In this document: positions 7,890 to 38,915 of the stretch, piece by piece | How the letters are laid out: the number at the start of each line of letters is the position of its first letter | Position numbering within the stretch: the first letter of the stretch is position 1 | Assembly (NCBI GenBank): GCA_050084515.1 | Contig: CM114271.1 | Coordinates: 10,726,001 to 10,790,000 of the forward strand | Reading direction: 5' to 3' | DNA: 64,000 bases | DNA from: Blasia pusilla | Taxonomy: Eukaryota | Made by a program: the position numbers and the translations under genes | Notes under the pieces: generated by a model | Told to the model about the DNA's origin: nothing | The model's database searches: none | What the model saw: the letters and a program-made list of their open reading frames with translations, nothing else

Positions 7890-8291
7890 GGTTTGACACA
7901 TCACGTCCACTTCTCTTAGCACCATTAATCTGATCGGCCCCCTTGTATGAGGAGAAGCCTAGATTGATGGTTCCAACTTAGACGTCGAAGGAGTCATAGT
8001 AATATGACGTAGGTGGTTTCAGGAGTAGCGTTACTAGGATTATCTAACCCTATATTGCATCAGGGTGCGGGGCACCTTGATGCAATATAGGGTTAAAAAT
8101 AGGTTAAAACTTAGTTTCCAGAGTAGTAAAATAGTCGGGAGCCGCAGCGGTAGCGCATTCTTGTATGTCCAATTATCTCCTGTTCAGGTTCCATCGAAGC
8201 TCTTCAGTGAGTGCACGGACGGACTAGGCCACTTTGTATCTCTAAGTTTTGTAAAAATTTCAGTGATTTCGTCACTTTCTGTTTTCTCACA
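7890..8291 (+). repeat. Copia 5' LTR
   Basis: Direct repeat of 37619-38039; ends TTTCTCACA, followed by the PBS. Confidence 0.9.
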
Positions 8292-8303: not shown

Positions 8304-8437
8304 AATAGGTTTTCTAGTATTTTGTATCTGGCGATCTAGTGTGTTTGCACAAAATATTGAGAGATGGCTACTTCTTTGTCAGTTTGTGCTCGCCCTCCTC
8401 CGCTGGGTGAAGGGAAGTTAGTGGGTCTAACTATACA

Positions 8438-9013
8438 TTGTGGAAGGGGCTGGAGATTTGGCAACAGTCAGATTCTATTTTTTTCTTTCAGCAAAAGTAT
8501 GCTAGAGAAATCTTGAAGGCATTCGGAATAACCGAGTGTAAAGCAGTGGTCTCGCCAATGGAGGTAGAGTTGAAACTCTTGATGGAGGATGTTTCACCAT
8601 TGGTAGATGAAAAGTTGTACAGAAAGCGTGTAGACAGTTTGATATTTTTGTGTAACACTAGAACAGACATTAGCTTTGCTGTGGGAGTGTTGAGTAGGTT
8701 CCAAACTAAGCCTCGTGAGAACCATTGGAAGGCAGGGATGCGTGTGTTGAAGTACATCAAAGGCACTATCGAGTACAACGTCACCTATGGAGTAGGGTCG
8801 GAAATGACAACTTTTTGTGACTCGGATTGGGCAGGAGATTCAGATTCTCGAAGATCAGTTTCGGGTTATTGCTTCTTGGTAGGATTAGATGTGGTGTCAT
8901 GGGTCAGCAAGAAGCAACCTACAGTGGCTCTTTCTTCTACTGAGGCAAAGTACAAGGCGGCTTCTTATGCTTCTTATGAAGCAGTATGGTTGAGATGGAT
9001 ATTAGAGGACATA
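8438..9013 (+). pseudogene. Copia RT C-terminus / RNase H N-part (continues 37328-37588)
   Basis: QQKYAREIL, FCDSDWAGDSDSRRSVSGY, WVSKKQPTVALSSTEAKY. Confidence 0.92.
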
Positions 9014-9768
9014 TGTCGTGCGCATACCTATCGCTACACAACATACATCGTTGGTCACATCTACACCACACAACACCGATCTTCCCCACACACGGGTCGA
9101 TCCACACATGTACAAAAATAAACTCATACATATACATGGAGATCACACAAGAAAAATGAAGAGTAATAAAAATGGCACAACCGGCCTAAAACTCCACTCC
9201 TCAATCTACATCTGCATATTAAGCCTCGTCCACCCTGTGCTATCAAGGAATCCGGACGCTACCACCCTAGTCCTATCTCACACACATACAAGAGAGGTGC
9301 TCCAACGGCCCAACATGAGAAAGATGGCTTAGGAAAGCCATCTTCCTCTCTTATATAGGGTTGGGAAGAGCCAAAAAGCTCTTCCCCCAAAAATAGCCAC
9401 CCTTGATAACCAACGCGCACAAGTTATCAGGGGCGGGTGACCTGGTCAACAAGTCACCCGGTTGTGAAAGACCTCAACATGAAAGTTGTCAGAAACGACG
9501 TTCCTGACACAATGAACCTATTCTCAACCTCATCTGACACCGTGGGATAAAGTTATACTCAAGATAGTCCGCTGGCTCCTACGCCCTATGCACGATAGAT
9601 CTCGACCTATCGGCTATTCAGATGTGACAGCTGTCGTGCGCATACCTATCGCTATACAACATACATCGCTGGTCACATCTACACCACACAACCTTGATCT
9701 TCCCCACATACGGGTCGATCCACACATGTACAAAAATCAACTGATACATATGTATGGAGATCACACAA
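9014..9768 (-). repeat. 3' terminal B-A-B repeat block of element 1
   Basis: B (137 bp) at 9014-9150 and 9632-9768. A at 9151-9629 matches ~36857-37323. Junction CAGCTG at 9628-9633. PPT-like TTAGGGGGGTGG at 9769-9780 (minus strand). Confidence 0.9.
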
Positions 9769-9845
9769 CCACCCCCCTAACTGGCAGTTGGATCCTCCCA
9801 ACTCCAGATAGAAAAAATCACATCTCTCTGACATGACCCACTACC

Positions 9846-10631
9846 CTATACACATCTCGGACACATCCATCGTCCCGTGGGAACCACATCAAGAGGGGGG
9901 GTCAGACAAGACATATGCCACCCGTGAGAACAACCATCACATACCAACATGGTGGCTGCATTCCTCGCAGATCCGCACAACATACACCTCAAGCCCGTAG
10001 GTCCCACTGCCAAGCTCGGATCCACCGTCTTGTCTACGTTTGCAAGATGACATGGCGCATATTTGCGCACATGATCCTTCCAAACCATTGCATCCCGTCC
10101 CTCCAACATAAGTTCTCCGATCGGTAATACCTTGCGCACACGTAGGATCGTGCGTCCTATAGTGACATCTAGCATCGTGGGTAGCGCCTGCTGTAAATAG
10201 AGGTAATCTCCAGGATGAAACCTCCTAATCCCTGGACAATAACCTCCTCCACGAATGGTCCCGTACCTCGATGTATCTCTATGCTGAGCAATAGCTAAGT
10301 TCTCAAAGGCCATAGGCATAACTCGACGAAAAACCTCAGCCCTGTGAGAACACGCTTGTACCCACACATCTCAATCATCAAGATCTAACATCTCTGCCAT
10401 GTCACGTCAAATTGCTGTAGGTAAATCTGGCTCTCTCCCAAAGAGCAAAAAGTATGGTTAAAATGACGCCAAGGATGCCTGTCGACTAAAGCGATAACCC
10501 ATAGCCAACCATGGCAACTATAGGTCCCACTCCCTCAACTGTCCTCACTGCAAGCCATACCTGCGCAATTCTCTCTTTACTGTCTGTACCACTCTCTCCA
10601 TCAACCCATCCGCCTCAGGATGATCTCTGGA
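9846..10631 (-). pseudogene. Integrase C-terminal part + PHD finger
   Basis: HPEADGLMERVVQTVK integrase core. C4HC3 pattern CMLC..LVCDGC..GWHMSCLTPPL..VPTGRWMCPRC. Confidence 0.9.
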
Positions 10632-11604
10632 GGGGGCTGGTATTCTGGCAGGAGAGAGTAAGAGAGGAGAGTCTCTCTTAAAAAAAAAGGGCCAAATCCG
10701 CCTCCTCTCTTCAAAACTTTTTGACATATTTGAAAATTTTGTTTGCTTTCAAATTCAGGAAATCTTTAGAAGAGAGTATTTAGTGGTCCACATTTGGCCC
10801 TAAAAAAACCTCCTCTTTCCTGGGGGCGAGAAAAAAGGAGACATCATAAGACCACTACAAACATTTTTCCATCACTCTCCACGTGAGCCTAAGTTTCTTA
10901 ACATTCCCTGTCTCGGTCAACAAAAAACAGTGCCCTTGGTATTTTTGTTGCAGGACCACCCGGATGCCAACCTCTCTTTTTGCACGGATTGTTTCCTGCA
11001 TCATGGCCTCCCCTAAATTGCCCCATAACCAACTTTCTGTTGGTTATGAATGGTGTCTGCTCAAGACCAACTTTGTGAAATGTGAACACATAAGATCCTA
11101 AGGTGAGAAACCGAGAAGCTGCACCCCTCCCAACCCGTAAGAAAGCTCATCATAAGAAAGGAAAGATTTTTAGAAGTGATTTTCTTCCACCCTGCACCCA
11201 CGACGATCTAACAGGTTGGGAATCCGAAATGGAAATCCGACAAGTAGTAGGAATCCTGCACATCTTAGACAAGAAAAGAAGCCTACAACTGGTTTGACAA
11301 ATGAAGGGGAACAAGCCAAAAGTCAAGAAGCCCGCCACAATGCGTCAAAAGTTGGTCTCACCGGGATAGAGTCCGATCACTCAAGCAGTCAACTTGTCGG
11401 AATCCGACAGGTTTCCTGGAAATGGTAAAAAAGTTGCAGTGGGCAAAAAGCAAAAAGTTGGAACCCGTCGGAATCATACGGGTTGCAGAATTGTAATTCT
11501 GAGTAGCTAAACGAACACAATCCACAAGTCCAAAAAAATATTCCAGCAAACTTTTACAAACACCATTATGGGTTGAAAAAATCTCGTCCTTTATTACCTC
11601 TATC

Positions 11605-14600
11605 TAATTGTACAAACTATCTAAGCTGTACCCATCTGAGCATGGATCCACAGGATCCTGGATCTTGAACACCTCGAAATTGTGCTCGGGCCGAACGGCA
11701 AAGACACGCGTAGGGAGTGGTCCATCTCAGAATCAAGACGTTGGAAACAATGTCAGCAACTAAAGAAGTCGGCTTGAGAACATTTTCAATTACTGACATT
11801 GGATCAACCTATCGGAGTCCGACGGGTTGTCTTGTCCCGGACCAACCCGTCGGAAGGCGACGGGTTGGTCAAGGACTAAAACAACCCGTCGGGCTCCGTT
11901 GTTTTTGTCCATGAGCAACCCGTCGGAAGGCGACGGGTTGCTGGCCTAGAGCAGCCCATGCTCGCCTGAGAGCAACCCGTTGCTATCAGGCAGGTTGCAT
12001 CCAAAAACCAAAAGCAACTCGGAAAAACCAAAAGCAACTGCAACCCGTCAGGTTCTGACGGGTTGGAGGTACACCGCGGTTTTCCCTGTGTATGTGGGAA
12101 AGATGCAACCCGTCAGAAACTGACGGGTTGCTCTTTGCCGAGCATGGCCGCTCTAAGCCGTAAAACCCGCCGCTTCCGACGGGTTGCTCACACAAAACCC
12201 CAGATTGACACTCATTATACTCACTCAACAGAGATGAACACTCATTATACACATCATTAAAATATAATTGAAATTATAGTACAGGAATTGAGCCTTACCC
12301 GAATCTGACTCGTCGCGGATCGGAGTGGGTACTCGTTTTTGATGATCCACGATTGCGTCGTCCTCCACTTTAGCGACCTCTTGACGCACTGGAGGTTGAA
12401 GCACTCTTGACGCACTTTAGCGTCCTCGCTCCCTCCAGTCAACACCAAGAAGCAGCCCCTGTCACTCAGATAGGCGTCTGCAAAGGAGAACAAAAGCGCA
12501 ATCTGGTCATAAGAGAGCGGCACATTCCACTCAGGCACCTCGTCCGATGGATTCTCGCCCCAAAGTCGCAACCCCGAGGGCAGATCGGCGATCAAGAGAT
12601 CCACCGCAACCTCTTCGACCACTCCATTCACCGTCAAGGCAGCGTGCCCGTTTTGTTGGAGCTTCCGTCCTAGCGTTCTCAATTTTTTGATGGCTGGTGT
12701 CGACGCTTGAGAACTGAAGCTCTTTAGCTCATCCAGTAAAGGAGTGAACTGAAGGAGGACGCTTGTCCGGGTCGTTGTTTGTCTGTGTCTTCCCAAGGAT
12801 GATGGATTGTATTCTCCTTGGGACAACCCGGGCACCTCTCGCTTCCGCTTCTCCCTAGTCTGCGAACGGCTTGTCGGGGTCTCTATGACCTCAGACTTTG
12901 GTGGGGTTTTTTTCGCCGAGGACCTGGTCCGACCCTCTCTCCCCGCTCGCCCGGACGATTCCGCCTTTGGCCTTGAATCTTCAGCCTCTCTTTGGGAAGA
13001 CTCGGCCTCTGAATTTTTCCCTCCCCTCGCCTTGCCTTTGAGACCCGCTGTGGATTTGTCTTTGGTTGTGCGGACCTTGGAAGCCAACTCAGCTGTCTCG
13101 TGGGCCTGCTCTTCTGCATCTCCTCCGTAGAAGTCTTCAGGCTGGACGAAATTGGGGATGTCGTCTTGTCCTGAGGCCACTGCATCATGAAGCACTCGTA
13201 AATTCTTATCGATGATGTCTTCAGGGTCGTTGAAGTCGAGCCAAATGGGGCAATTCTCCACCTCCCAATCGGACATGTGTTGCCCCATCTCCATGTCGTA
13301 CATGGAGAATGTCTCTGCATCCGGCGGCAAAGCCCACAATTTCAAGGCTACCGGTAATTTTCCCCACGTACTTGCATTCTTACATTGGACGAGGTACCTG
13401 AAGACCATCCGTTGGGCAGCTTTTAGTCAAACACAATCGGCCGTCTGCTCCTGTAGATCTCGCTTCTTCTTCGCTTGATCCCGTTCGTTCCCCTCTACTT
13501 CTTCGTCAAGCTCTGCCTGAGGGAGGACGCAAACCTTGAACATGGTCTTGAATCCTGGGTTTTTGGTTGGCTTGTCCTGGATGTGGTCGAGCCAAACCTC
13601 GAAATCTCCAGAACTTTCAAGGTTTGCTTCATCCGGGATGGGCTCTTATCTTCTGAGCTCCGTTTGTAGACCATCCAGCACGGAGTTCCCGATAACCCGC
13701 AACGCGTCCCAGAACGACCATACGCGTATCCAGTGCGAGATCATTGGATCGGACACACCCGGAGGATGGTGTGTCGCCCTCTTCTGGGCCTCTGAGCCCT
13801 TGAGACTGATTTTCATCAGTCGGATCCTCCTAAACTCGCTTATGCCGGACAACGCAAACCGATGCACGCAATCCAGGGACACTTTCTCCCCAATCCGACC
13901 ATGCAGATCTTCATCCCTTTTCGGGCGCTTGATAATCGCCTTGGCTCCTTTGTAGAACTCCGGACCAAGTTCGGGGTTGAGAATCTTGATGTATCGCGCA
14001 TCTTGCTCGCCGTGTATTTCGTTGTCGCAGATATCGCAGCCTTGATGAATTTCGCGGCGCCAGACGCAGATACCTTCTCCCTCCGCTCCAGCTCCATCTG
14101 CAGCGCTTTTCTTGCGGCATGTATCTTCGACCAAAGCAAAGGATGGTTCTGGCCGCATCTTGGGAAATAAACTTATTTGCCCAAGTTTTTTTTTTAACTG
14201 AGCACCCTTTGCAAGCATCTGATTGACAAGGGCATTGCCCAAGAACCCCTATACTCTCCCGGTGCGTCGTAAGCACCTTCCTCATCCGATCGCAGTCATG
14301 GATCCAGTGGTGGGTGACATTTCCCTCCGATACAATCCTGCTTTCGGCCAAAAACAGTTTCGAGGCAAGCAACCCGTCGGACTCCGACGGGTTGCTTTGG
14401 GGAAAAAACCTTCTAAACTGCAGCTCGTTCGAACAACTCGCCGGAGTCCGACGAAGTTGCATTCTTCAAAAAACATCCTCACAAGGCGGCGAGTCGAACA
14501 ACCCGTCAGACTCCGACTGTTTGCTTTGGGCCAAAAACTAATTAAATCTGTGGTCAATCAAACAACTCGCCGGAGTCCGACAAGTTGCATTCTTAAAAAA

Positions 14601-15916
14601 ACATCCGAAAAAATGTGCAGTCGAGCAACCCGTCGGAGTCCGACGAGTTGCTTTCGGCAAAAACAAACCTAACCCATTCATCAATCGAGCAACTCGTCGG
14701 AGTCCGACGAGTTGCGTAAGTGTTACAGATTCTCACGTGTTCATGGCATGCATTGTCATCTCCACCATCGCCATGTGATGAGGGAATGGGTGAAGGACCA
14801 CTGCCTTCACGCATAAATGTGCCTCCAATGAGTTGGGCCGCTCCTCCGCAAACTTGGTCCATGCCATGAACCTGTGATTTCCATCCCAGATGAAGAAATG
14901 CAGATTCCTCATCCAGCTGAATTCCGTGCCCTCAACTTGCCTTCTGAAATCCTAGTCTCGCATCCTCCAGAATGTGTCGAGCTTTTCCAAGTCCTCCTCC
15001 ATAACCAGAGCTTGGGTTCCATGCTTGTCGTAAGGCTGAACATAGAAGGGAGGAAAGCGTCGGCGACGAGGATGTTTGTCGCCGATTGTTTAAGCTTTCG
15101 CGATGTCCCTCGTCGGATCGAATTTCGCGGACGTATTCCATTGTCCACAATCGCGAGTGGAATCCTCGGGCTAGGGTGGCGTCCATGAGTGCCATATGCT
15201 TTTCCACCTGTCAGAACCAGGACAAGATGAATAAGCTACACTGAATTTCCAATGAATTGCAATTCACATAATTCAAAAAACCCATATCCTCTCTTACCCG
15301 CTCGAAAATGGGGTCGGTTTCTTGACCAGCTAACTTGTCTGAGACAGAAGCTGGAAAATCGACTAGGAACTCGTCGATCCGATAGAGGTCGATGTCCTCC
15401 GCCGGGCTTGGAGTCGAATGACCGCTCTCCGCTTCTTCGCCATGTCCACCATCTCCACGCTGGCGGTCCTCATGACCTCGTCGTCATCGATTTCAACTTC
15501 TGGCGTTTCCACTATGTTGATTGTGTCCCCAGACTTCGTGGGGGACATTTCCCGCATCTCAACACTTTCAGTTGGACGGGCAGGGCTATCGCTTTTTCCC
15601 TCCTCGCTTTAGCCAATTCTGCCCTCCTCACCAACGCGTCCAGACGCTTCTTTTCTCTCTTTTCGTCGGCGATCCTTTTCTTCAAGGCCTGCGACGTCTC
15701 AGCCTCTGCGTTCTGTTTATCTTTATCTAGCGCCTCTTGAATACGTCTCGCAAGAAGCACTTGGTTGTGCATCTCTGCTTCCCTTTCCCGCTCCTCGATT
15801 TCCCGCTGCCTAATTTCATTCGCCGAACGAGGCCTAGGAGATGCTGACGTAGGAGTCCTAATGGACTTCGGAGTGAAGCTCCCAGACTTGTTGGCTTGTG
15901 ATTTTTTCCTCGTCAT
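11605..15916 (-). pseudogene. Spliced gene: coiled-coil + ParB/Srx-like + beta-class amino-methyltransferase-like domain (3' part deleted in this copy)
   Basis: ATG (MTRKKSQ) at 15916. FFIWDGNHRFMAW at ~14871-14888. VDLLIADLPSG at ~12575-12600. GT donors at ~15297, ~14737 and ~12297. Frameshifted; lacks the segment matching 54258-55545. Confidence 0.7.
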
Positions 15917-16299
15917 TTTTTCCGGAAATGCCTCCACCTATGTCCACGACAAATCCCTTGATCAGTCGCCTTGCTGATGTCGAGATGGGGAGCTCGAATC
16001 ACCTTGATGGGTAGCTCGAATGGTCCCGCGATCGCTCAGTCGAACCGTCTCGTTGTCGTTCGGTCGAACCGTCTGGCTCTCGTTCCCTCCTATCGATTCG
16101 CAATGTGTCGCCGTGTGAAACGCCCCTTCGTATCTGATCAGCTCCTGCGCGGGAGAGTGAGGAATGAAGATGGCAAAATGAGAAACCGGAAATGAGCGAT
16201 TTTTGCCCTATTTATACTTTTCTAGCCGTTGGGCTGACCGTTGGGTCCCGTCGTCCTTTCGACGGTGACCTGCCGGAGGTTACGGAAGTCCGGACGTGA

Positions 16300-16810
16300 A
16301 AAATGGCAACCCGTCGGAGTCCGACAGGTTGCGCGCCTCTGCCATCCTGGGTACGACGCCACGTGCGCGAGCAACCCGTCGGAGACCGACATGTTGCGCG
16401 CCTCTGCCGTGTTTGGGACGAGAACGGGACGTATCTTGGGCAATCCGTCGGAGACCGTTGGGTTGCACGCTTCCCTCATCAAGGTTCAAGAACGCGGGCT
16501 TCCCGTGCAAGTCGTCAGAGTCCGGCTGGCTGCACACAAGGCGAGGCCCTTGCGCAACCCGTTGGAGGGCGACAGGTTGCACGCCTCGTTGTCTTTGGGC
16601 AAATAGGTGAGGCACCCGCGGAAGTCGTCGGGAACAGACGGTCTGCACGCCTTCGGCATCTTCGGGCAAGAAGGAGCGGTATCCGAGCAACTCGTCGGAG
16701 AGGGACGGGTTGCTCGCTTTGACAATGTTTGGCAGAAGCGTGCAACCTGTCTGAAGCCGTCGGTTAGCTTCGGGTAATTTTTGAGTTACCAGGACTCCGA
16801 CGGGTTCCAA
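16300..16810. repeat. Intergenic palindrome cluster between the two divergent genes
   Basis: About 9 palindrome copies with variable spacers, flanked by outward-facing TATA-like boxes (GTATAAATA on minus at ~16209-16217; CTATAAAT at ~16963). Confidence 0.8.
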
Positions 16811-20566: not shown

Positions 20567-20760
<194 letters not shown>

Positions 20761-21921
20761 CTCTCAGTTCTTGATTGGACTTGGAGTTCCGAGATCATTG
20801 TGATTTTGCTCGCCTTTTGTGACGATGAGGACGAAGCATCTAGCCATTACTTGGCTTCCTACGCAAAATTCGTATTCCTCAGAGCAAGAGCATATGCTGA
20901 TATTGCTAAGCTGGTAGCACTAGAATTGTTCAAGGTACCTTCTTCACTTGCTTCTCTCTCTACACCCATCCCGCTCTCAAGCACCGTCCAACCAGGGCAT
21001 GGGGTCTATGGTCGCAAGGCTACGACAGGCACTATTTGATAGTATAGTCTTTCTCTCTCTCCTTTTGGTAGTACCAGAATTGTTCAACACATTCAGTAGC
21101 CTTGATTCATTGCCCAAAGCTACTGCAGTGGTAAATAATGTCTATTGGGGATCCCAATCAGGTAAAGTAGATGGTCTGGTGAATAGTTTCTTGGATGACA
21201 CGTGGAAGCTTCGCACAAACACGTTGTTTAGTCAACACTCACACTATATGAGAGTGTCTCCCTCCTCTCATATAGTATCTTCTTCACTTGCTTGTCTTTC
21301 TACACCCATTCGAGCAACAAGTGCTTTCTTGCTTTCCATACATTATAACTCTTTTTTATATATATACATATCGCGCCGACCATGGAATTGGTTGAATTTG
21401 GCTCAACTAGTGTTGTGTATCAAGTACAAGAGCAAAGTAAGACTCAAATATCACGGAGGGGACCGAGACATTCACTCCTTGACCTACCAAGTACTTACTT
21501 GTACGTCACTCTTCTCCTTGTTCTCCTTGCGCCTTCACATAGGTTAGTCACTTGCTTTAGTTGCTGGAAAAATACATTAGACCAGGGCCATAATAAAGTG
21601 TATATATCAAAGGATTGAATCATTATCTAAAGTTGGGTGTGTTATATTTGTCATTCAGGAATGTCATTTGAAGCGTTGGACCACATCGGTGAGGATTGTT
21701 AGTGATGATTGATGATTGAGATCTCCATCGAGATAAGAACCAGGTTAGGTATATGTGCCTTATCATACTTGTCTTGACTTCACGTGGGTATGCATTCAGA
21801 TGATAGCTTTTTCCATTAGATCTTTGTGGAATTTGTTATTGAGGCAAGATGTCATGGTTTTGGATGTGTTTGGAATGTTTCAGTTCACAGTTTGCGGGAA
21901 TTCACTTCCAATCCCCTTAGA

Positions 21922-24900
21922 ATGGATTTGAACCACCCAGTTAGAGTAAAGGCACACGATTCCAAGTTGTGGCAACAGGAAAGCACACGAGCTAGAGTGT
22001 TGGGCTGTAAAAGATTGCGGTGTCCGTGCAATGACTGTAAGGGTGGGTCTACGTTGTCCATCGGCAAGGTGGAAGCACATTTGAGAAAAAATGGACGCTC
22101 GGCGCTTTGTCAAGTGCCAAAATCTAGGGATGGATGGGACTCTTCAGATGAAGAGTGGCTTATGCATGATCTTGCTGAAAAAAGAAGCCAAGAGGATAAG
22201 ACAATGGAGTCAGCCCCCACCTTCCATGTGGATGGAAGGGGAGATTTTCCATGGCAGATATAGACGAGCACATTGACGTTCATAAAATGCTCAATGATAT
22301 TTTCCAGAAATACGACTATATACACGAGGATGAGACTGCAGAGACATCTCTCCCATATGATGAATTACCAGAACCGGGAATATCAAACGAAGAATCACTA
22401 TTCAATCATGGAGATGAATATGAGGAGCTTGCTGAAGCTTGCAAACCCTTGTTCCCTACAGCGAAAACATCTGTTTTGGCTTTTATCATGTTACTATTCA
22501 ACATTCAAACCACCCATGGCGTCCCAAATGTAGCTATTGACGATTTTTTGAAACTCCTTTGTAAGTTGGTCCTACCAACAGGGAACTTGGCGCCACCGAG
22601 TTATTATGTAGCAAAAAAACTCATTGGTAAACTAGGCTTAGGTTCCAACAGTATCCATGCGTGTCCAGCTGGATGTGTTTTATTCTGGGGTTATTAGGCT
22701 GAAGGTGAGATCTGTCCATTATGTGGGAAACCAAAGTTCCGGAAAGTGGGTAGAACGTTGGTACCATGTAAGGTATTAAGGCATTTTCCTGTCATACCTC
22801 GGATGAGACGTATGTTTAGATGCAAGACGTTGTCTGAATTGTTAACCTGGGCCCCCTTGAATCAGAGCAAGGATGGCTTAGTAAGACATACAGCTGATTG
22901 CAAGGCATGGCGCCACATGGACAACTTATATCCGGACTTTGCCGAGGAGAAGAGGAATTGCAGGTTTGGGCTAGCTTTGGACGGAGTGAATCCATTTTCA
23001 GACAAGTTGAGTTCGTGGTCAACATGGCCCGTGCTTCTTGTTAATTATAACTTGCCTCCCTGGCTCCAGACCAAAAAATTCTTTGTGATGCTCTCTTTGA
23101 TCATACCAGGAAAGGAGAGTGTAAATGGGAAAAACATAGACACATACTTGCTTCCTCTAGTGGAAGAGTTCCAAGAAATGTGGAAAGGGGTTCAATTTCA
23201 TGACGTACGGAAGGTAGGCGGAAGTTGGAACTTCATGTTCAGGGCTACCTTACTATGGACCATAAATGATTACCCGGCATACGGAATCAGAGAGGGCGTA
23301 ACCATGGTGGAAAACTAGGATGTACTATATGCGGGCCTCGAGTGGATTCTGATTTTTCAAAGTCTTGTGGCAAGCCCATATACGGTTGTCATCGTCGACA
23401 TCTCCCATTGAGCCATCCATGGAGGACCCGCAGGTATGGATCTCACTTCAACGGGAGTGCAGAACTTAGACCACGCGTGCCTAGACTACTTTCCAGAGAG
23501 ATTATTGGATGGGAAAATGAAAAATATGCATATGATGAGAGTGGGGGTCGAGAAGACGGCCCTACTGATCCCTACAAGAGAATTGGGGTGAAAAGGCTGA
23601 GTATACTATATTTTTTGCCATATTGGCCAGTATCCTGCTTCTTCTCTATATTATCCATTCTTTATGTTATGAAATAGTGGCTATAGAGGAGGATAGCTTT
23701 TGTTTGATTTGATTGTGGATACTAGCTATCATGTTGAAGTTGTGAGATGTCCATGCTTCCTTGACGATACAATCAGAATTTGCTTATACACCATACGTTA
23801 GATGTAATGCACGTTGAGAAGAATATCGTTGAGAATCTAGTCAAGACCTTATTTGGAGTGAAAGATACTGTGAAAGTAAGGAGAAATCTGGAGGCTCGTG
23901 GGATTCGATCCCATTTGTGGTTGCAACCCCATCCTAGTAAACCTCAAGTTTTGCTTAAACCAGATTCCGATTATTGTCTATCTCCCTGTGACTTGAACAC
24001 TTTCCTTTTGAGGATTCAAAACTTGAAAGTGCCATCTGGATATTGTGGAGAACTCTCCAAGCATGTGGTTAATCAAAAATTGGGCAATATGAAATCACAT
24101 GATTACCATGTCTTCATTCAGCAAGTCCTTCCTTATTGCATCCGTGGTCTTCTGAAGGACCACGTGACAATGGTGGTTATTAGATTATCCGGCATTTTTA
24201 GAATGGTGTGTACAAAGGTATATGATCCAGCTTTATTTGACAAACTCTTGGAAGAGACTGCCATAACCCTTTGTCTATTTGAAATGCACTTCCCTCCATC
24301 TTTCTTCGACGTGATGACACATTTGTTGATTCATGTCATAGAAGAGTTGGACATGTGTGGGCCAGTAGCATGTCGATGGATGTATCCAATGGAGCGATAT
24401 ATGGGGTACATGAAGAAATATATACGGTCTAAAGCTAGACCAGAGGGGTGTATGGGCGAGTAAGGGTATGTGAAGGACGAGGCATTAGGGTTTGTGACTG
24501 AGTATATGAAAAGGTTTGAAGACGTGCGGAAGCGAGTGTGGGATGATGGGGAGGAAGAGGGGGTCGTTGGTGAGGAGCTAGAAGGTGCAGACACTCCAGT
24601 TCGACTTTCGCGAGAAATGATCAACTTAGCACATCATTATGTGTTGCATAGTACAGAGGTCATGGTTGATTGGCAAAGGTAAAACTCTCCAATATATGCT
24701 TTTCAAGATTATAGTTATGTGAATTACGGTTCAGACTCTCAAAGTGTAGATTATTTTGGTATTGACACATTAAATACAAAATAATGTACTAATACCATTA
24801 ACATTGTTATTGAACAGGAAATATCAGTCATGTTTGAGAGACATTCCTTTTGAAAAGTGGATTCGCCTTGCCATTACACAGGATGCAATTGACAACTCAA

Positions 24901-30722: not shown

Positions 30723-32352
30723 AGCTGAAGTGTTGACCGACCAGGGTACAGAGTTTCAAGGTGAGTTTTAGGTCTTGTGTGACAAGGTGTTGATTGATCA
30801 TCGGACCACATCTCGAGATCATCGAGAGGCAGATGGTTTGGCTGAGCGTGTGGTTCAGACACTGAAGAGGGCATTGCGCAAGTATGGCCTACAAAAGGGG
30901 CATCTTGGAGACAGGGTTATTCAGTTGCCATGGTTAGCCATGGGGAATAGGTTCAATCGCCAAGCATCCTTGGCTTCCTTCTCACCTTATTTTTTGTTAT
31001 ACGGCCGAGATCATGACTTGCCAGCAGCAATTCGTTGGGAGTCTAGTAAGGTGGTGAACCTTGACAACCCAGAGATGTGGATGAGAGTGTGTTCTCAGCG
31101 GTCAGAGCCCTTCCGAAGAGTTATGCCAATATTCTTTGAGAATCTTGCCATTGCTCTACACAGGGATACGTTGCGGTATGCAACCATTCGGGGTGGAGGT
31201 TATCGAACATCGATTCGTAGGTTCCGTGTGGGGGACTATGTCTATTTTCAGCAGATTGCACCGACAACGTTGGATGTGACGGCACGCCGCTCTATTTTAC
31301 GAGTGCGCGAGGTGTTAGCTAGTGGAGTTCTCATGTTGGAGGTTCGTGATGGAGTTGTTTGGAAGGACCATGTGCGTAATTGTGTGCCATATCATCTTCC
31401 AAATGTGGATGGTAGTGTTGACCCAAGCTTAGCCATGATACGTGCTAGCTTGAGGTGTATGTTGTGTGGGTCTGCTGGTAACGCAGCCCATATGTTGGTG
31501 TGTGATCGGTGTTCTAGGGGTTGGCACATGATGTGTTTGACTCCACGTATGGATGTTGTTCCTACTGGAAGGTGGGTTTGTCCTCGATATACTTAGGAGG
31601 GATATATAACTTGATCTTTGCATAATATGGATTATAGATGTGCAACTAACGATGGGGCAACCTAGCACCCGGCCTTCTGATTCGTGCACCCCCGAAGGTG
31701 TATAGCATGTAGTAGATGTATAGGGCTACTTGGGAGTTAGAGGGACCTAACCGCCAGTTAGGGGGGGCGAGTTATGGTACACTTGTGTTTGTGGATGCTC
31801 TCCTCTATGTTATGTATGTAGGTGAGTATGGTATGTCAGCAATGTATGTTGTATGACGATGTGGATTCGCACGACAACTATCATGACCCTACGGATTATG
31901 TCGTAGAGTATAGTGTGCTAGTAGAGGCCGTACCTTATGTAGGGCCGTAGTGTCTAGGTAGAGATGTAGTTTCATACATAGGGTTGGGGGTTACTCCATT
32001 GAGGGTGACTTTTCCAGTAGGGCCCGCTCTTAGGTTGGAGGATATAGTGTGGAGTCCGCTCAAAGAACAGTTAGTTCTTTGAGTTGAGCTTATTGCGTTG
32101 GGAGTTAGCCTTGGTAGTGAGCAGAGCTCTTGGTTATGGTGGTTCCTGCAAGCTTCGACGTGGATTCTCCCATCGTGGAGTGGGTTTGGCTTGATTTTAT
32201 GTGATTCTATATGTGTTTTATGACAGTAGGTTTTTCATGGATTTTAGTTGTGGTACACTTCTGTTTGTGGATGCTCTTGTCTATGTGATGCATGTAGGTG
32301 AGTATGGTATGTGAGCGATGTATGTTGTATGACGATGTGGATTCGCACGATA
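30723..32352 (+). mobile_element. 3' part of gypsy-type element 2a: integrase-PHD + B-A-B end
   Basis: VLTDQGTEF, DGLAERVVQTLK, PHD at ~31455-31590. PPT at ~31758-31771. B at 31772-31876 and 32248-32352; A at 31879-32247; junction CAACTA (mutated CAGCTG). Confidence 0.9.
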
Positions 32353-35300
32353 GAGTGTCTCCCAACAACAGAACGTTCTCCAAAATTTACGTTGGAGAAC
32401 ATGTCTGACTCTCCTGCAAATGTCGTACTACTCGTAGCATCTCCCAAAACATCCCTAACCTAGGATCTTGCAATCCAAATCCTCGGCCAGTTGATGAATG
32501 ATCCTGACATGGCCATCTAGCAATTACCAAGTGAATGGTGCCAACTCTATCCAGATCGTGCGCCCCCACCAAAGAGATGTGGACGGGTAGTGTATGCTGA
32601 TTTTCCCGTACTGCAGATACCGACAACAACTCACGATACCTCTGGACCAATCTCGCCACATGACATAATGATACTCGTTGCGCAATCTCATCTCTCTCTA
32701 TATAAAGGTGTTGATGCACCCGTATGCCTTCCTGCACAATTGCAGCCAATCCGGTGCTAATCCCTCCGAAGAGATCTAACACCCTAACACCCTCCTCTGG
32801 GCACTCCCACACAACGGATTAGGTATCTAGTGGGATCAACGTCTCCACTCCAAGAGCCCGATCACCACATGACTCTCGCTGCTCCGGGATAAAGGCACGA
32901 CTCCACGCCTGCCTCACGAGGTTTTCGGCACTCCTCAATAGCTCTCAAGTCGTACCCCACAATGGTGAAGAGGTCTCGCCAATATGGGAAGAGACACCCG
33001 CCATGGCCTGTCTCTCCGTGGGACTATCCGCTACTGGGACATCCTCCGCATGTGCGTTCCCCTCCAAAAACTCTTCTGGCTAGCTAACACTACTTGTGAA
33101 AGCTTCCAACGTGGTCACAGACTCGCCTCGTGATCGACCACCTCATCCCGCAAACTGCACGGGTAACTGTCTCATCCGCCCGTCACTTGACCGCCACCCT
33201 GGCCGATAAGCAATGGTCTCCTCCCAAAAGCCAAGGATGAATCCTAGGGGATATAATACTGTACTCCCCACCAACATATCATACGACTCAATTGGTGTCA
33301 TAATCGCACGTGTGCGCACCATAGCACTATTCGTCGCATGCTCTAGTTGGACTCTGACAACTATCTCCTATCGAGTCATATACTGTGTGGGTGACACGCC
33401 CCCAATTGAGGTCTGTATCTCGAAGGGACAAGGCTCAATGTCGGCCTTCCGTAACCCCAACGCTAAACACGCCTCCTTCCCTAACATCAAGGGTTGCGCT
33501 CCCGAATCAAGTAGGACGCGCTGCAGGTGGTATACTGTCCCCGTGGGACTAACCAAGCGAAATACTCCGGCTCGGTTATTCGGTAACACTACTCAAGGTG
33601 TCACCACTGCTCGCTCTATGGCTGGTCGAGCTGGCATATCTACCAACTTCGCCGCCACCGCATGCCATGACTTTGTGGGGAACGTCCCGAGCACCGGCTC
33701 TGAGGGCAAGTCCACCACCTCCTCAACTACCTCTGAACAAGAAGCAGTCATCTCTCCACGCTCACACAACGTGGCGGCTAGCAAGAACACCTCAGATGGT
33801 CCAACTCCCAACGTCGCCAACTCTATGGCGGAGAATAGTGGAGTCTGACTCACTGTGGTGGCCATCTCCAACACTATGGTCGACATTGACTCCACTCGAG
33901 CAAGCATAGGAGTTGTCACTCCAACTCCTCATGATGTCAACGCACCTGCCTGAGCTATAGGCACCGCTGGTCGTCGAGTCACCATCGATGGTGTGTGTAG
34001 TGCCTCCAACAATGTGAATGACTGTGGAACCCTGGCCTGCCGCCCATCAGTCCCCTCTGGTGGGTCAATCTCAACTCCACCTCTCGATGGCTCGGTGCCT
34101 CTCGCAGCACCTCAATTCACCATTGTAGCTGCCTCAACCCCTGGGCTGCACTACACATAAACCCCATACTGGCAAGATCCTCACCCGAGTCAGGGTAAGA
34201 GGTAGAAGCTGGAGCCACACTAGCTGCTCGCGGCTCCGTGCCTTCCCTCAACTCCATCATCGTCATGGCAGCAATCCTATGCTCCAATTGATCGATGCAT
34301 GAGAGAAGTGCAGGCTCTGGTGCTCCTGCTCCATCTCCTCTGGCTGGTGGTGGTCCTCTACCACCACGTTCAAGAAGAACTCCCCGACCTCCTCTAGGAT
34401 GACCGCCCCCAGGCCCTCAACTTACCTCTGGACGTGCCTCTCGGCGAAGGTCAAAACACTTATCCCTAGTGTGACCATATTTGTGGCAATAGTCACACTG
34501 GTGCTGTGGTGGGGCCATCCTCTGTGGATTGCTATAATTTGAGCATATTGAGCTCAACATGAGTGAGGAGCAGGTAGTGACCGTTGGATTTTCTCGAGAG
34601 TCAACAAGAGGCGCTCGTGGTCCTCTCCCATGTTGTGAGTAGTCTCTCTGCCTATGGGCCCCTCCACACGTCCAACAAGACCACATCGATCCCTGCTGGG
34701 CAACATATGTAGGTACGGGTTGTTGCCTCATAGGCTTACGGTACCCGCCCTGCTCTCTAGGCACACCGGCCCACTCCCGTGGTATTGGTGCTCGTTGTGG
34801 CACCTATGGGGTCACCGGCGCTCATGGACCCATCGACTCTCGAGAAAATCCAGCGGTCACTACCAGCTCCTCACTCATGTTGAGCTCAATACGCTCAGAC
34901 AACTCAAAGACCACCTTCAATGTGGGCTTCGCTGTGTGAATCAGCACCCCATCTCGGACTCTCCTCCGTAGTTCTCGATCTAGAATCCCATACCAATACT
35001 GGACTGACTGCGCCTCGGTCACTTCATAGGTAGCAATGATCAACATCCTCATGCGTATGAATGCCTCTCTCAGACTCTCACCCGATCGTCACTGAAAATC
35101 TTGTAGACTCTTCAGCTTGTTGATGCGTACGCCCTAGCAGCTCTTCCCCAAGTGTCGGAAGAACTCCTGGGTGGCCCTCTACCACCAAAGGTCTCTGCCA
35201 TATCGCGTGTCTCACTGCCCTCCTCTCCATCTAGTCTTCGGGCTGATGGTGTGGGTCTCTCTCCTCTCACAATCCCATCATATGCCTCGCGACCACTAGT

Positions 35301-35726: not shown

Positions 35727-36856
35727 ACACTCAAAGAACGCCGTGATGACAAAACCTATCTCACCCGCTCAAGCACTGAGACTCACCAAGAGTCTCCCAC
35801 ACTCCTCACTAGCTCACCTATGCTTACATCAATCTCGTGATGACATACCCGGCCTCACACACCCTCAACACTTGGGCTCACCATGAGCCTCCCAACTGAC
35901 TCACCTAACCTAGCAACACTCTCTCGGATCATACACGCAACCCCCACTTGGAAACCGCCGTATATCCACCAACATGCTACACATGAAAAGAATCTACACT
36001 CGTCACCATCACTGCACCCACCTAGCACTAGCTACTACCCGATACCCAGCTCTCTAAATCACACATGAAAAGTGTGGGAAAAGGGACTCAAATGGGTAAC
36101 CTGATCATGCCCTCCAACCTACGGTATCGTCAACACGCACTCCCCCATGTGACACGGCAACCTCTGCAACACGACACTCCCCCATGTAACACGGCAACCT
36201 CTGCAACACGACACTCTCCTCGACCAACACGTCAATCCTCCCGTCATCAAATGCGGACAACCCGTCGGCGTCATGCGCACTGACACTCCATCGTCAATTT
36301 TTGCAAATCCCCGTCACGCCCGAAAGCATCATGTCGCGCAAACCTCTTTGCCTATCCCCACACGCGGCTTGTAACCTGAATCAACCTGGTCTGGCTCCAC
36401 TCCTACCACGTACTCAGATCCACCACATCCACCCCCACTTGGTAGCCTTCTCACCACGTCGACCTTCTTCCACGTCCGGTCCTACCACGTTGGAGGGGGT
36501 TGGTTGCGGCTCCGCACCCGGCCGTCTCCGCAACCTAAATGCGACCTACATGCCTATGCAACCTTTCCTCCGCCTCCGCCTCTGCAACCTTTCCTTCCTG
36601 CTCTTTCTTGACACTCTCGCTACTCTCGACGATGCACTTGCCGCCCCACTCCGTACTACACTCTGCCATTGTCCTCAATCCCTGTGCACTAGCAAACTCT
36701 GAGAAAAATGGACAGCGCTTCTGCCCACGGCCTTCCGGACAGAAAAATGACCAACACCCGCAACAAACGCATCTCCAGGGGCTCCCAACCAAGGCAACTT
36801 GCTTACCTACCTGCAAACAACAAATTCCCACCAGCCCCCCGACATCTTTCTCATAT

Positions 36857-37323
36857 AAAAATAAAGAGTAGTTAAAATGGCACACCCGGCCTAAAACTCC
36901 ACTCCTCAATCTACATCGGCATATCGAGCCTCGTCCACCCTGTGCTATCAAGGAATCCGGACGCTAGCACCCTAATCCTATCTCACACACATAGAAGAGA
37001 TGTGCTCCAATGGCCCAACATGAGAAAGATGGCTTAGGAAAGCCATCTTCCTCTCTTATATAGGGTTGGGAAGAGCCAAAAGGCTCTTCCCCCAAAATAT
37101 CCATCCCCTTGGTAACGTGCGCGCACAGGTTACCAGGGGCAGGTGACCTGGTCAACAAGTCACCCGACTGTGAAAGACCTTAACATGAAATTTGTCAAAA
37201 ATGACCTTCCTGACACAATGGACCTATCCGACAGCGTGGGACAAAGTTACACTCAAGATAGTCGGCCGGCTCCTACGCCGTATCCATGATAGATCTCGGC
37301 CTATCGGCTACTCAGATGTAACA
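36857..37323 (-). repeat. 5' terminal A repeat of element 1
   Basis: Matches 9151-9629, with no B segment attached. Sense strand starts TGTTACATC. Confidence 0.9.
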
Positions 37324-37327
37324 CATA

Positions 37328-37588
37328 GGAGAAGCACCAGAAAGTGCTATTGTAATGTGGTGTGACAATTAGAGTTGCATTGCCATAGCACATAATCTTG
37401 TGTTTCATGCTCGTACAAAGCACATAGAGATCCAATATCATTTTGTTCGTGAATTGATCGAGAGAGAGGTTTTGAAGTTAGTCTATTGTCCAACAGAGGA
37501 TAATCGTGCAGACATCTTCATGAGTGCTTTGAGCGGAGATAAGCTTCACCGACATCTAAAGGGTCTTGGCATAGGTCCAAGACAGTAG
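37328..37588 (+). pseudogene. Copia RNase H C-part
   Basis: WCDN, FHARTKHIEIQYHFVRE, ADIFM. Confidence 0.92.
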
Positions 37589-37618
37589 TCCACATGACAG
37601 TGGATATTGAAGGGGGGG

Positions 37619-38039
37619 TGTTGGATATTCAACATCCACTTCTCTAAGCACCATTAATCTAATCGGCCCCCTTGTATAAGGAGAAGCCTAGATTGATGGT
37701 TTCGACTTAGACGTCAAAGGAGTCATAATAATATGATGTAGTTGGTTTCAAGAGTAGCGTTACTAGGATTATCTTATCCTTTATTGCATCAAGGTGCGGG
37801 GCACCTTGATGCAATGATCTTTCTATTAATAGAAATAAAGTAAAATAGGTAAAAACCCTAGTTTCCCAAGTAGTGAAATAGTTGGGAGCCGCAGCGGTAG
37901 CGTATTCTCGTATGTCGAGTTATCTCCATGTTCACGTTCCATCAAAGCTCTTTTGTGAGCACATAGATGGACTAGGCCACTTTGTATCTCTAAGTTTTTT
38001 AAAAATTTCAGTGATTTCGTCACTTTCTGTTTTCTCACA
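37619..38039 (+). repeat. Copia 3' LTR
   Basis: TG...CA directly after the PPT; matches 7890-8291. Confidence 0.92.
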
Positions 38040-38098
38040 CGATTCATTTTTCCACTAAGGTCTGAGGAGTGCTAATCTGCACATCTTCGACAACTACA

Positions 38099-38205
38099 AT
38101 GACGAGAAAAAAGTCACAAGCCACGAAGGTTGGGAGCATCACTGCCAAGTTCATCAAGACTCCTTTGTCGGCTTCTCCTCTATCACGTCTTTTAGGATAG
38201 ATTCG
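38099..38205 (+). pseudogene. N-terminus of the ParB/MTase-like gene of copy D, truncated by gypsy element 3
   Basis: MTRKKSQATKVGSITAKFIKTPLSASP versus MTRKKSQANKSGSFTPKSIRTPTSASP in copy A. Confidence 0.75.
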
Positions 38206-38696: not shown

Positions 38697-38915
38697 CAAA
38701 GAGAGAATGAGAGAGTGAGAGAGCGTCATGGGGGAGCTCGCTGGTCACTCGCTGTTTTTGCAGGTTGGGGACCGTGTTCCCCGTTCAGCGGCTCATGGGA
38801 GCTTACTTTACAAAGAGAGAATGAGAGAGTGAGAGAGCTTCATGGGGGAGCTCGCTGGTCACTCGCTGTTTTTTCAGGTTGGGGACCGTGTTCCCCGTTC
38901 AACGGCTCATGAGAG
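38697..38915. repeat. 114-bp tandem duplication in the element 3 leader
   Basis: CAAAGAGAGAATGAGAGAGTGAGAGAGC...CGGCTCATG occurs at 38697 and 38811. Confidence 0.9.

Follow-up and report, generated by a model that had tools for sequence, protein, structure and literature searches.

In the textbook model, retroviruses and LTR retrotransposons insert linear cDNA that terminates at the edges of the LTRs and loses 2 nt by trimming, and two-LTR junctions are regarded as dead ends. In insertion sequences of the IS3/IS30 type, which encode integrase-like DDE transposases, TG...CA ends abut across a spacer of a few base pairs in an active circular or tandem intermediate. A 1984 circle-junction model of retroviral integration was tested with an internal junction in SNV, and the internal copy was proposed as the integration site; the same source, in its excerpted text, gives linear DNA as the normal retroviral precursor (PMC11054761). 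Excerpts of two further papers describe restriction-like cutting of a palindromic two-LTR junction by the integrases of foamy virus and HIV-1 (PMC1180852, PMC1905944). In Klebsormidium nitens, the element KnitGypsy-Dnmt3 combines a DIRS-type repeat structure with Gypsy domains, as stated in the legend of Figure 4c of de Mendoza et al. (2018, PMC5890265); the passages and legends consulted there describe neither a junction sequence nor a target duplication, primer sites or a mechanism. Apart from this record of DIRS-like repeats in a Gypsy element, full-text literature searches listed no title or abstract on the junction, and we encountered no account of the duplications or of a mechanism.

The elements described here occur in a 64-kb window (the whole stretch of DNA that was analysed) and in metagenome loci, and all copies studied are old and broken. 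Their genomic layout is A1-coding-B1-GC-A2-B2, where B is a short and A a longer repeat; it is seen in three complete metagenome elements and in the window element gamma+alpha. In place of two like LTRs, the 5' end consists of A alone and the 3' end of B-A-B, with B absent beside A1 in L019, L037, L065 and window gamma. On the minus strand, A1 of gamma+alpha occupies 36857-37323, starting with TGTTACA at 37323 with no adjoining B, and the terminal block of copy alpha spans 9014-9767 (B1 9632-9767, spacer 9630-9631, A2 9151-9629, B2 9014-9150); the 3' end of this copy is corrected from about 8997 to 9014. The block of copy epsilon, also on the minus strand, spans 57366-57940 and comprises B1 (57834-57940, 107 bp, 99% identical to B2), A2 (57471-57831) and B2 (57366-57470), which ends in ...CACGACA at base 57366 and is followed by the flank TATAGC. 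That of copy beta, on the plus strand, spans 31770-32352 (B1 31770-31876, A2 31879-32245, B2 32246-32352). Copy zeta (56551-56680, plus strand) is a short form in which a G-run is followed by a single B ending in ...CACGAAA and then by flank, with no A2-B2. Nested and rearranged copies are abundant in the window, and its three junctions are mutually homologous.

The true termini are defined by their flanks. In the window copies the 3' end ...CACGACA is followed by unrelated sequence (TATG.., TATA.. and GAGT..), and the 5' end TGT(T/C)ACA is preceded by an unrelated flank (window 37323). Nine complete elements have TG...CA ends, each with a 4-bp target duplication that is perfect in six (ACTA, TACA, TCCC, CATA, AAAG and TATG) and imperfect in the others, with three of four bases alike in two elements and two of four in one. 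For gamma+alpha, the duplicated TATG (sense, minus strand) lies at 37324-37327 on the 5' side and at 9010-9013 on the 3' side, and the two flanks are adjoining parts of one copia-type pol gene. The whole A-coding-B-A-B unit is found in about 16 distinct insertions, each with different flanks. After collapsing of copies, the short form A-coding-B is at least as common, with about 19 distinct insertions versus about 16 for the long form.

These elements are Ty3/gypsy retrotransposons of the streptophyte Gypsy-DNMT3 group. Their gene content is gag, a DNMT in some lineages, RT, RNase H, and an integrase with H2C2 and DDE segments that carries a PHD finger at its C-terminus. Copy epsilon has a decayed pol (58087-60498, minus strand) that retains the Ty3/gypsy order of RT, RNase H and integrase with H2C2 and a DDE (rve) core: Pfam identifies RVT_1 at 60136-60498 (3.6e-25), RT_RNaseH_2 at 59441-60022 (4.9e-8), Integrase_H2C2 at 59212-59523 (1.8e-11) and rve at 58970-59293 (7.4e-6; 26.6 bits, under the 32.6 cut-off), and a C-terminal ORF at 58087-58834 contains a PHD finger remnant. 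The corresponding matches in L019 are RVT_1 (5e-24), RT_RNaseH (1.1e-34), H2C2 (1.7e-14) and rve (4.1e-13), and PHD ORFs are present in alpha (9849-10370, minus strand) and beta (30772-31593, plus strand). Membership in the Gypsy-DNMT3 group is indicated by the DIRS-like A-coding-B-A-B layout together with a C-5 cytosine methylase within pol. The methylase (PF00145) is found at 43550-44101 in a third related copy, delta (plus strand, 1.5e-10), upstream of RT (44791-45612), as a second remnant at 32390-32818 in copy gamma (minus strand, 1e-4) and at 6462-7070 in L019 (4.1e-5); Pfam lists none in L037 or in that portion of copy epsilon which lies within the window. A search for the 5' end of delta (about 38040-40470) revealed nothing recognisable. 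The best named match to the window integrase C-terminus is from Marchantia polymorpha (80%), and the K. nitens protein KFL_009030040 is 50% identical over 66% of the query.

The A1...B1-A2-B2 arrangement is also that of DIRS-type elements, and one could read the junction as the point at which a tyrosine-recombinase element recombines, as a circle, with its target. We regard this as so improbable as to be nearly negligible. Tyrosine-recombinase families are absent from three Pfam scans (123, 130 and 34 ORFs, in overlapping sets), and a DDE integrase is present; chromodomains are likewise unlisted in those scans, whereas the PHD finger is present. The 4-bp duplications are variable, whereas the model in the excerpted text of PMC7192593 expects the junction trinucleotide on both flanks. 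Moreover, GC follows the 3' end in just two of 23 listed single-B flanks (L024, and one flank shared by L045 and L047), which is approximately the chance rate. DIRS/Ngaro tyrosine-recombinase identity is rejected because of the domains and the target duplications.

The junction hexamer CAGCTG forms the boundary B1|A2 of the block B1-2bp-A2-B2, with which the element terminates. Its plus-strand letters are found at 9628-9633 (copy alpha) and 57830-57835 (copy epsilon), both in copies whose sense is the minus strand and reads ...CACGACA-GC-TGTCA..., and a decayed form, CAACTA, lies at 31875-31880 in copy beta (sense plus); these are the positions and letters that the original prediction had given. 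In copy epsilon, CA (57835-57834) ends B1, GC (57833-57832) is the spacer and TG (57831-57830) starts A2. The bare hexamer is not rare, with 10 occurrences in the window against 16.05 expected and at least 10 in 95 of 100 shuffles. The 14-mer CACGACANNTRTCA, allowing at most one mismatch, occurs four times against 0.55 expected, a number reached by none of 100 shuffles; three of the four are the junctions and the fourth (9007-9020) is one copy's true 3' end with its flank. The prediction that the exact 3' end meets the exact 5' start here across 2 bp missing from the real termini is borne out, because the sequences beyond ...CACGACA and before TGT(T/C)ACA are unrelated to the element.

The spacer between B and the following A is 2 bp in all 26 metagenome loci in which A and B were located by repeat or BLAST homology, independently of the junction motif. 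Collapsing near-identical copies leaves 28 junctions, six of them from distant loci found with a motif that presupposes 2 bp, and in these the spacer reads GC in 18, AC in five, GT in three, AT in one and TC in one. The complete CAGCTG is intact in 14 of the 28, and departures from it are all C>T or G>A except two, G>T in L019 and A>G in L052. Judged from these letters, the ancestral spacer is GC and the other spellings are transition decay. Constancy of the hexamer and spacer, a point on which the original prediction could have failed, therefore extends to a 2-bp length in the 26 metagenome loci and the three window copies, with GC throughout apart from transition decay. The palindrome is also kept in distant lineages in which both arms have changed, as GGCA-GC-TGCC in L069 and as a 16-bp perfect palindrome in L034, and the layout is common to lineages with only 42-47% identity in the integrase C-terminus. 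In 16 additional loci, most of them distant and lacking a recognised B, a search for palindromes with 0-6 bp between the arms had a background too noisy to pick out lineages with another spacer. One locus, L077, reads integrase-G-run-B-GC-A-gag, which may reflect a tandem copy or assembly collapse of repeats, and was left out of the counts.

Given the nested, rearranged and mutually homologous copies in the window, the junction might be supposed to descend from a one-off rearrangement, such as a tandem or partial LTR or a self-insertion, inherited without a role in transposition and with the 2 bp as a target-site remnant. This is very improbable. The whole unit has inserted about 16 separate times with its own 4-bp duplications, the layout recurs in the divergent lineages above and in the Klebsormidium relative (PMC5890265, legend), and a single ancestral 2-bp spacer sequence contrasts with duplications of 4 bp. 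The self-insertion remnant that the original prediction had named as a possible refutation is ruled out, since real target duplications are 4 bp long and different at each site.

The transcribed B1-GC-A2 segment contains a perfect self-complementary sequence of 10-16 nt. Retroelement genomic RNAs dimerise via palindromes, and the palindrome could be kept mainly for such a function in RNA, possibly alongside a role for the integrase. We consider this improbable as the main reason, since the centre of the palindrome matches both genomic termini to the base, as the duplications of nine elements show, and its arms are the terminal inverted repeats that an integrase requires anyway.

Candidate primer sites for reverse transcription lie at other boundaries. 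A polypurine-tract-like G-run is located directly upstream of B1 in copy epsilon (57941-57951, minus strand, sense TTAGGGGGGCG), with counterparts in alpha (9772-9777, minus strand) and beta (31761-31767, plus strand). In one lineage, each of 13 distinct elements has a G-run that ends exactly at the start of B1, as is also the case in other lineages; in 12 of the same 13 elements, B2 begins with the same nucleotide as B1. At the 5' end of gamma+alpha (minus strand), A1 contains a TATA box (37062-37055) and a predicted RNA start, CATCTTTCTCAT (37031-37020), to which a predicted self-priming primer-binding site, ATGAGAAAGATG (36843-36854), located 2 nt after A1, is complementary. A2 of copy epsilon carries a TATA box (sense TATAAG, 57667-57662) and the self-primer sequence, AGTTCTTTGAG (57645-57635). 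The sequence that immediately follows A1 could base-pair with a site 31-32 nt past the TATA box over 15 nt in L037, 12 nt in L005 and 12 nt in window gamma, lengths that were reached by none of 500 shuffles in each case. The paired sites covary, with unrelated sequences in the three lineages. Complementarity is clearly above shuffles at four of ten 5' ends, including L019, which pairs with a different site; among the remaining ends, L004 shows partial complementarity of 9 nt at the homologous site, which lies 23 nt past the TATA box (11 of 500 shuffles are as long), and five of the ten are decayed.

RNA reads agree with a transcript that includes the junction. Depth is about 50-240 over the integrase, G-run, B1, junction and A2 (three runs, on the presumed sense strand, a call that assumes the usual stranded library). 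It drops within the last ~100 nt of A2, to 28-35 in the bin 57434-57550, and is 1-4 in B2, which has almost no reads. The reads thus span B1-GC-A2 and cease at about the A2 end, with start and end resolved no finer than the 117-nt bins. They derive from raw runs under the same species label and are pooled from all family members at least 88% alike.

Since the G-run adjoins B1, the predicted self-priming site adjoins A1 and the RNA ceases at about the A2 end, the expected product of reverse transcription is an LTR consisting of B-GC-A, of which B would be the start of U3. An LTR defined in this way is bordered by both a predicted polypurine tract and a predicted primer-binding site. The alternative definition, an LTR of A-B with the hexamer as the true U5|U3 circle joint, is ruled out: no B follows A1, and the G-run and primer site are at other boundaries. 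The description of the hexamer as an end-to-start junction accordingly holds as anatomy, but in terms of reverse transcription it would be an internal LTR site, and the true U5|U3 joint would be A2|B2. The new observations here are the G-run adjoining B1, the covarying, predicted Tf1-type self-priming site adjoining A1 and the end of the RNA at about the A2 end.

The hexamer is probably a site within the reverse-transcribed LTR where two integrase-recognised ends abut and where the integrase cuts internally. In the mechanism we propose, the RNA would start ~31 nt past the TATA box in A1, continue through the coding part, G-run, B1, GC and A2, and end at about the A2 end. Its first 12-15 nt are complementary to the sequence directly after A1 and would pair with it, implying Tf1-type self-priming, and the G-run before B1 would prime the plus strand. 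Ordinary reverse transcription would then yield B-GC-A / coding / B-GC-A. With this LTR, the genomic ends would lie inside it, at distances of 105-180 bp and 300-480 bp from where the cDNA ends; we know of no LTR-retrotransposon integrase that cuts 105-480 bp inside a cDNA end. Because genomic copies read A / coding / B-GC-A / B, the left-hand B must shift and the element must open at CA^GC^TG. The genomic copy would thus be LTR-coding-LTR in circularly permuted form, opened at the palindrome in the LTR next to the PBS, with the left-hand B shifted to the right of A2 and A2|B2 corresponding exactly to U5 end | U3 start, a two-LTR-type joint.

From this anatomy we infer cleavage by the integrase after CA on each strand of the palindrome, which would generate CA-3'OH ends with 2-nt GC 5' overhangs; insertion of these ends would involve a 4-bp stagger. 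Formation of the A|B joint might take place before cutting (as a two-LTR circle), after cutting (by joining of two free ends) or by template switching. The short form could arise if both palindromes were cut, from a one-LTR circle, or through later B1xB2 deletion. The original prediction of an att-like cleavage site opened from a circle is upheld in essence by the G-run, self-priming site and RNA end, with the free circle as only one of several candidate routes.

A two-LTR circle would hold two identical palindromes, and cutting of the other one would yield the isomer A-B-A-coding-B, which is found at none of ten distinct 5' ends; if its frequency equalled that of the long form, none would be found with a probability of roughly 0.02. 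The isomer could decay faster through AxA recombination. Its absence also fits a more direct route that we consider unlikely, in which the long form arises without it: both ends of a linear cDNA would be templated by the internal B1-GC-A2, using unconventional primers at the junction, with a minus-strand primer on the A2 start and a plus-strand primer ending at the B1 end, giving a linear A-coding-B-A-B with CA-GC-3' on both strands. The integrase would only trim 2 nt, and GC would be the trimmed dinucleotide. GC being self-complementary, both 3' ends would read ...ACA-GC and form a single substrate. Split-direct-repeat elements share this layout and need their internal copy to rebuild the ends, and the ICR of DIRS-1 is essential according to the excerpted text of PMC7192593. 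However, B2 could not be copied in place from an RNA that lacks it. The A start is conserved across lineages only as TGTCA(T/C), with no primer-binding stretch beyond, the B end is A/C-rich without a purine tract, and the conserved G-run and covarying self-priming site are located elsewhere, at the B start and A end.

To return to internal cutting at the inherited palindrome, the predicted primer sites, the span of the RNA, the termini and the target duplications jointly point to this as the place where the integrase would act, and to a U5|U3 joint that would be rebuilt in each cycle. It is possible, at a little short of even chances in our view, that in a whole streptophyte Ty3/gypsy lineage the integrase attachment sites have been relocated from the edges of the LTR to a palindrome within it, with insertion obligatorily via a tandem-LTR intermediate. 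If so, that intermediate, a two-LTR circle or an end-joined form, would be opened by the integrase in the fashion of a restriction enzyme at each productive insertion, in a natural and obligatory counterpart of the circle-junction model that was abandoned for retroviruses. This would be convergent with DIRS elements and with the circle junctions of bacterial IS. Insertions of the form A-coding-B, about half of the total, would be dead on arrival. The published puzzle of a Gypsy element with DIRS-like repeats would be accounted for, and a plant with genetic tools would allow a direct test of the old question of whether the junction can be the normal substrate of a retroviral-type integrase. Such elements will be mis-called by LTR finders designed around two similar terminal repeats, and in the short form terminal repeats are absent altogether.

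KnitGypsy-Dnmt3 (PMC5890265, excerpted text and legends) resembles the window elements in its Gypsy pol with a Dnmt3-type methylase and in its A-B-A-B layout; the window elements differ as liverwort-type relatives with a PHD finger after the integrase. Like Tf1/sushi-type elements, represented in plants by the Tcn1 clade (Neumann et al. 2019, PMC6317226, excerpted text), they lack a tRNA-type primer site and carry LTR-adjacent sequence able to pair with the first bases predicted for the RNA, but they have a PHD finger and no chromodomain is listed. The DIRS order (PAT, Ngaro and DIRS-1 with its ICR), as described in the excerpted sources, shares the layout A1-coding-B1-A2-B2, joined ends copied inside the transcript and a transcript without part of the termini; it uses a tyrosine recombinase, whereas the window elements have a DDE integrase, TG...CA ends, 4-bp duplications and a 2-bp spacer lost on insertion. 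The IS3/IS30 circle junction is similar in its abutted TG...CA ends, short spacer and integrase-like DDE fold, but belongs to bacterial DNA elements without reverse transcription, and its spacer comes from flanking DNA rather than from the element. In the retroviral junction, too, a DDE integrase cuts an internal palindrome of two abutted ends to give processed ends. There, in the published excerpts, the palindrome forms where U5 meets U3 in a circle that is a by-product, and four bases separate the cuts, whereas in the window element it is inherited inside the LTR, two bases would separate the cuts and its use is seemingly obligatory.

The hexamer CAGCTG joins repeat B1 to repeat A2 through a 2-bp spacer (GC) and occurs at 9628–9633 and 57830–57835, with CAACTA at 31875–31880 (sense +), exactly as originally predicted; both CAGCTG sites read ...CACGACA-GC-TGTCA... 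on the − strand. Bare CAGCTG is unremarkable (10 in the window versus 16.05 expected). The 14-mer around the junction is enriched, with four matches where 0.55 are expected, a count that none of 100 shuffles reached. Window self-comparison and a three-way alignment place each junction inside a block B1–2 bp–A2–B2 (alpha, 9014–9767, −; beta, 31770–32352, +; epsilon, 57366–57940, −) in which A spans 360–480 bp, B spans 105–155 bp, and B1 and B2 are 92–99% alike. The block is the end of the element, B2 being followed by unrelated flank. The alpha 3′ flank (TATGTCCTCTAATATCC, 9013–8997, −) is a near-match to the A start, owing to which BLAST extended the alpha B repeat ~17 nt beyond its true end; this A-like flank reflects either chance or a preference for self-like targets.

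On the sense strand upstream of 57366–57940, Pfam scans of open frames identify RVT_1, RT_RNaseH_2, Integrase_H2C2, rve and, in a C-terminal ORF, a PHD finger, and the other two blocks are likewise preceded by a PHD ORF. No tyrosine recombinase is present among the Pfam matches of the open frames scanned. C-5 cytosine methylase domains are found in retrotransposon pol, upstream of RT in a related window copy (43550–44101, +; Pfam), at 32390–32818 (−) and at 6462–7070 of L019, one of the metagenome loci carrying relatives of the element. The named proteins that match the integrase-PHD ORF best come from liverworts (Marchantia polymorpha at 80%, followed by Calypogeia and Riccia); a Klebsormidium nitens protein that combines methylase, RT, RNase H and integrase domains is a further match. 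These domains and protein matches place the element in the Gypsy-DNMT3 group of de Mendoza et al. 2018 (PMC5890265).

Metagenome contigs were scanned once with the integrase-PHD protein alignment, giving 80 loci. Repeats were located without use of the motif, as a direct repeat B1/B2 behind the PHD ORF; such a repeat 80–300 bp after the ORF was found in 21 loci, in all of which 2 nt separate B1 from a following T(G/A)TCA. The candidate L044 was rejected as a false positive. Loci with B after the integrase were classed by mapping A and B sequences from four lineages with BLAST: 23 have the long form B-GC-A-B (L070 and L071 placed by the direct-repeat search), three have B-GC-A with no B2 seen, in 24 the sequence after B is not A, and in one B is cut by the contig end. 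In the other 29, B is unrecognizable with these queries or the sequence is too short. L070, L071 and others of their lineage carry one to three tandem 15-bp units at the B end, ending ...CACGACA, and B1 and B2 within one element can differ by one unit.

Six more distant loci came from a motif search, which assumes a 2-nt spacer and therefore informs on motif conservation only, not on spacer length. Their junctions include ACACGACA-GC-TGTCACG (L017), the same arms with spacer GT (L018), the 16-bp palindrome CACGTGACA-GC-TGTCACGG (L034) and CACGGCA-GC-TGCCATG, with both arms changed (L069); L076 and L077 complete the set. Collapsing near-identical copies leaves 28 junctions, with spacers GC (18), AC (5), GT (3), AT (1) and TC (1). 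CAGCTG is intact in 14 of the 28, and the changes are, with two exceptions, C>T or G>A, a pattern that probably reflects decay of methylated CAG/CTG sites, as expected once copies are dead. The B1-GC-A2 junction is without length change in every copy, and the junction observation is confirmed as valid across lineages.

Both ends of the element are present in three long-form and five short-form (A-coding-B) loci. A1 begins TGTCATG with flank immediately before it, and the last B terminates CACGACA with flank immediately after. The metagenome elements show 4-bp flank repeats (ACTA, TACA, TCCC, CATA and AAAG) as well as imperfect ones, two at 3/4 bases and one at 2/4. In the window, TATG is common to gamma, an A1 at 37323–36857 (−), and the block ending at 9014, and the outer flanks of gamma and alpha match neighboring stretches of a single copia-type pol gene (the left flank projecting to reference position ~391, the right flank starting at 380). 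The gamma A1 and the alpha block are therefore opposite ends of a single old insertion that nested elements have lengthened to 28 kb. B is absent beside A1 in every element with both ends. The termini and duplication are characteristic of a DDE integrase rather than a recombinase.

Several other features surround these copies. Copia-type pol fragments lie at 45560–48373, 56865–57356 and 8411–9013 with 37324–37640 (all +); the target of the gamma–alpha insertion is one copia copy, whose LTRs may be the direct repeats 7903–8291 and 37632–38039 (86% alike). CACTA-type transposase remnants (Transposase_21, DUF4218 and a Transposase-associated domain; 21820–24460, +) are located between nested retrotransposon pieces, and tandem arrays occupy 20569–20765 (6-bp period, ~98% alike) and 568–927 (45-bp period, six listed copies). 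An inverted repeat pair of 6–7.7 kb (10650–16798 and 48729–56494; copies 85–96% alike), without Pfam match, shares its start base (GGAGTCCTGG...) with differing flanks. Both copies run in sense orientation straight into a retrotransposon 3′ part, one meeting the integrase C-terminus at 10627 and the other joining the 3′ part just before the G-run at 56533, and may represent the body of a non-autonomous derivative.

The predicted plus-strand primer is a G-run of 6–9, which in one lineage ends exactly at the B1 start in all 13 distinct elements; in 12 of the 13 the B2 start nucleotide is the same as that of B1, and the G-run|B1 arrangement also occurs in other lineages. The predicted minus-strand primer site immediately follows A1 and is complementary to a site in A, 31–32 nt downstream of a TATA box. 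The complementarity covers 15 nt in L037 (after A1, AATTCTAGAAAAACT; in A, AGTTTTTCTAGAATT), 12 nt in L005 (ACTCAAAGAACT and AGTTCTTTGAGT) and 12 nt in gamma (ATGAGAAAGATG, 36843–36854, and CATCTTTCTCAT, 37020–37031), lengths each reached by 0 of 500 shuffles. In L004 the homologous site, 23 nt beyond the TATA box, pairs over 9 nt (11 of 500 shuffles); L019 pairs over 11 nt but at a different site, and 5 of 10 5′ ends are decayed. Because pairing is retained in L037, L005 and gamma despite mutually unrelated primer-site sequences (covariation across three lineages), it appears to be the signature of Tf1-type self-priming with the predicted first 12–15 nt of the RNA. Such self-priming has been predicted for the plant Tcn1 clade (Neumann et al. 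2019, PMC6317226).

Raw reads of three RNA runs, which share their species label with the best-matching DNA data set, were mapped to 57200–60700 at 88% likeness, a first mate on + denoting RNA of the − strand (element sense) if the library is of the usual stranded type. Sense depth is ~50–240 from 60700 down through the integrase, G-run, B1, junction and A2, drops to 28–35 in 57434–57550 and is 1–4 in 57317–57433, which corresponds to B2. On this profile, the transcripts include B1-GC-A2 and end at about the end of A2. Each of the three runs contains reads with an RNA joint 57798>57518 (4, 8 and 5 reads); it goes back 281, from A position ~312 (end region) to ~32 (start region), with a 4-nt overlap and without splice signals, and none is listed among the DNA contigs. 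In addition, each run has 15–37 reads that lack 1001 bases within the integrase region (58578–59580), with identical 14 extra letters between the joined parts, and an internally deleted family derivative appears to be expressed.

The G-run at B1, the self-priming site at A1 and the RNA extent define the LTR limits: U3 would consist of B, GC and the beginning of A, with the remainder of A forming R(-U5), for a predicted cDNA B-GC-A/coding/B-GC-A. The genomic arrangement A/coding/B-GC-A/B is a circular permutation of this predicted cDNA. A2|B2 joins the last base before the primer site to the first base after the G-run and is thus a U5|U3 joint, as in two-LTR circles, which needs remaking each cycle because B2 is absent from the RNA. 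Variants in the L036 group (B2 without its first 5 nt and with one extra base; B1 complete) and the L053 group (A2 shortened to 73 bp) fit a joint made from free ends, though they may instead stem from later deletion.

The termini would then arise by opening the palindrome of the LTR adjoining the primer site, with cuts after CA on both strands yielding CA-3′OH ends and 2-nt 5′ overhangs. Integrase cleavage at CA^GC^TG, the core of the original prediction of an att-like site, is supported by the ends, primer sites and RNA extent; a circle as the substrate, a detail of that prediction, is unproven. A free two-LTR circle would carry the same palindrome twice, and cutting the second copy gives A-B-A-coding-B; none of 10 distinct 5′ ends shows this isomer. 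Either the palindromes are not equivalent at the time of integrase action, or the long A repeats cause the isomer to decay rapidly. The standard scheme makes the left LTR double-stranded long before the right, and one may speculate that this renders the palindromes non-equivalent. Direct priming at the junction would sidestep the missing isomer but is contradicted by the primer sites and RNA extent, which favor cleavage of the palindrome. The short form has its own target duplications and is at least as common (~19 versus 16 long distinct insertions after collapsing loci; one versus three among window copies). It could come from cutting both palindromes of linear cDNA, from a one-LTR circle, from template switching between B1 and B2 or from later B1×B2 recombination.

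A DIRS-like layout is already in print for a relative: the Fig. 4c legend of PMC5890265 describes repeats laid out as in a DIRS element with the domains of Gypsy. A 2026 preprint uses the term ‘streptophytes (Gypsy-DNMT3)’. The literature searched yielded no description of the junction, duplications, primer sites or permuted LTR, although figures and supplements of PMC5890265 may show more. Chromoviruses carry a chromodomain after the integrase, whereas a PHD finger occupies that place here. The CA-3′OH ends with 2-nt 5′ overhangs proposed here match a trimmed retroviral end in geometry, whereas 4-base extensions are predicted at the retroviral circle junction (PMC11054761). Foamy virus and HIV-1 integrases are able to cut a palindromic junction (PMC1180852, PMC1905944), and the integrase of this element probably cuts its own palindrome likewise.
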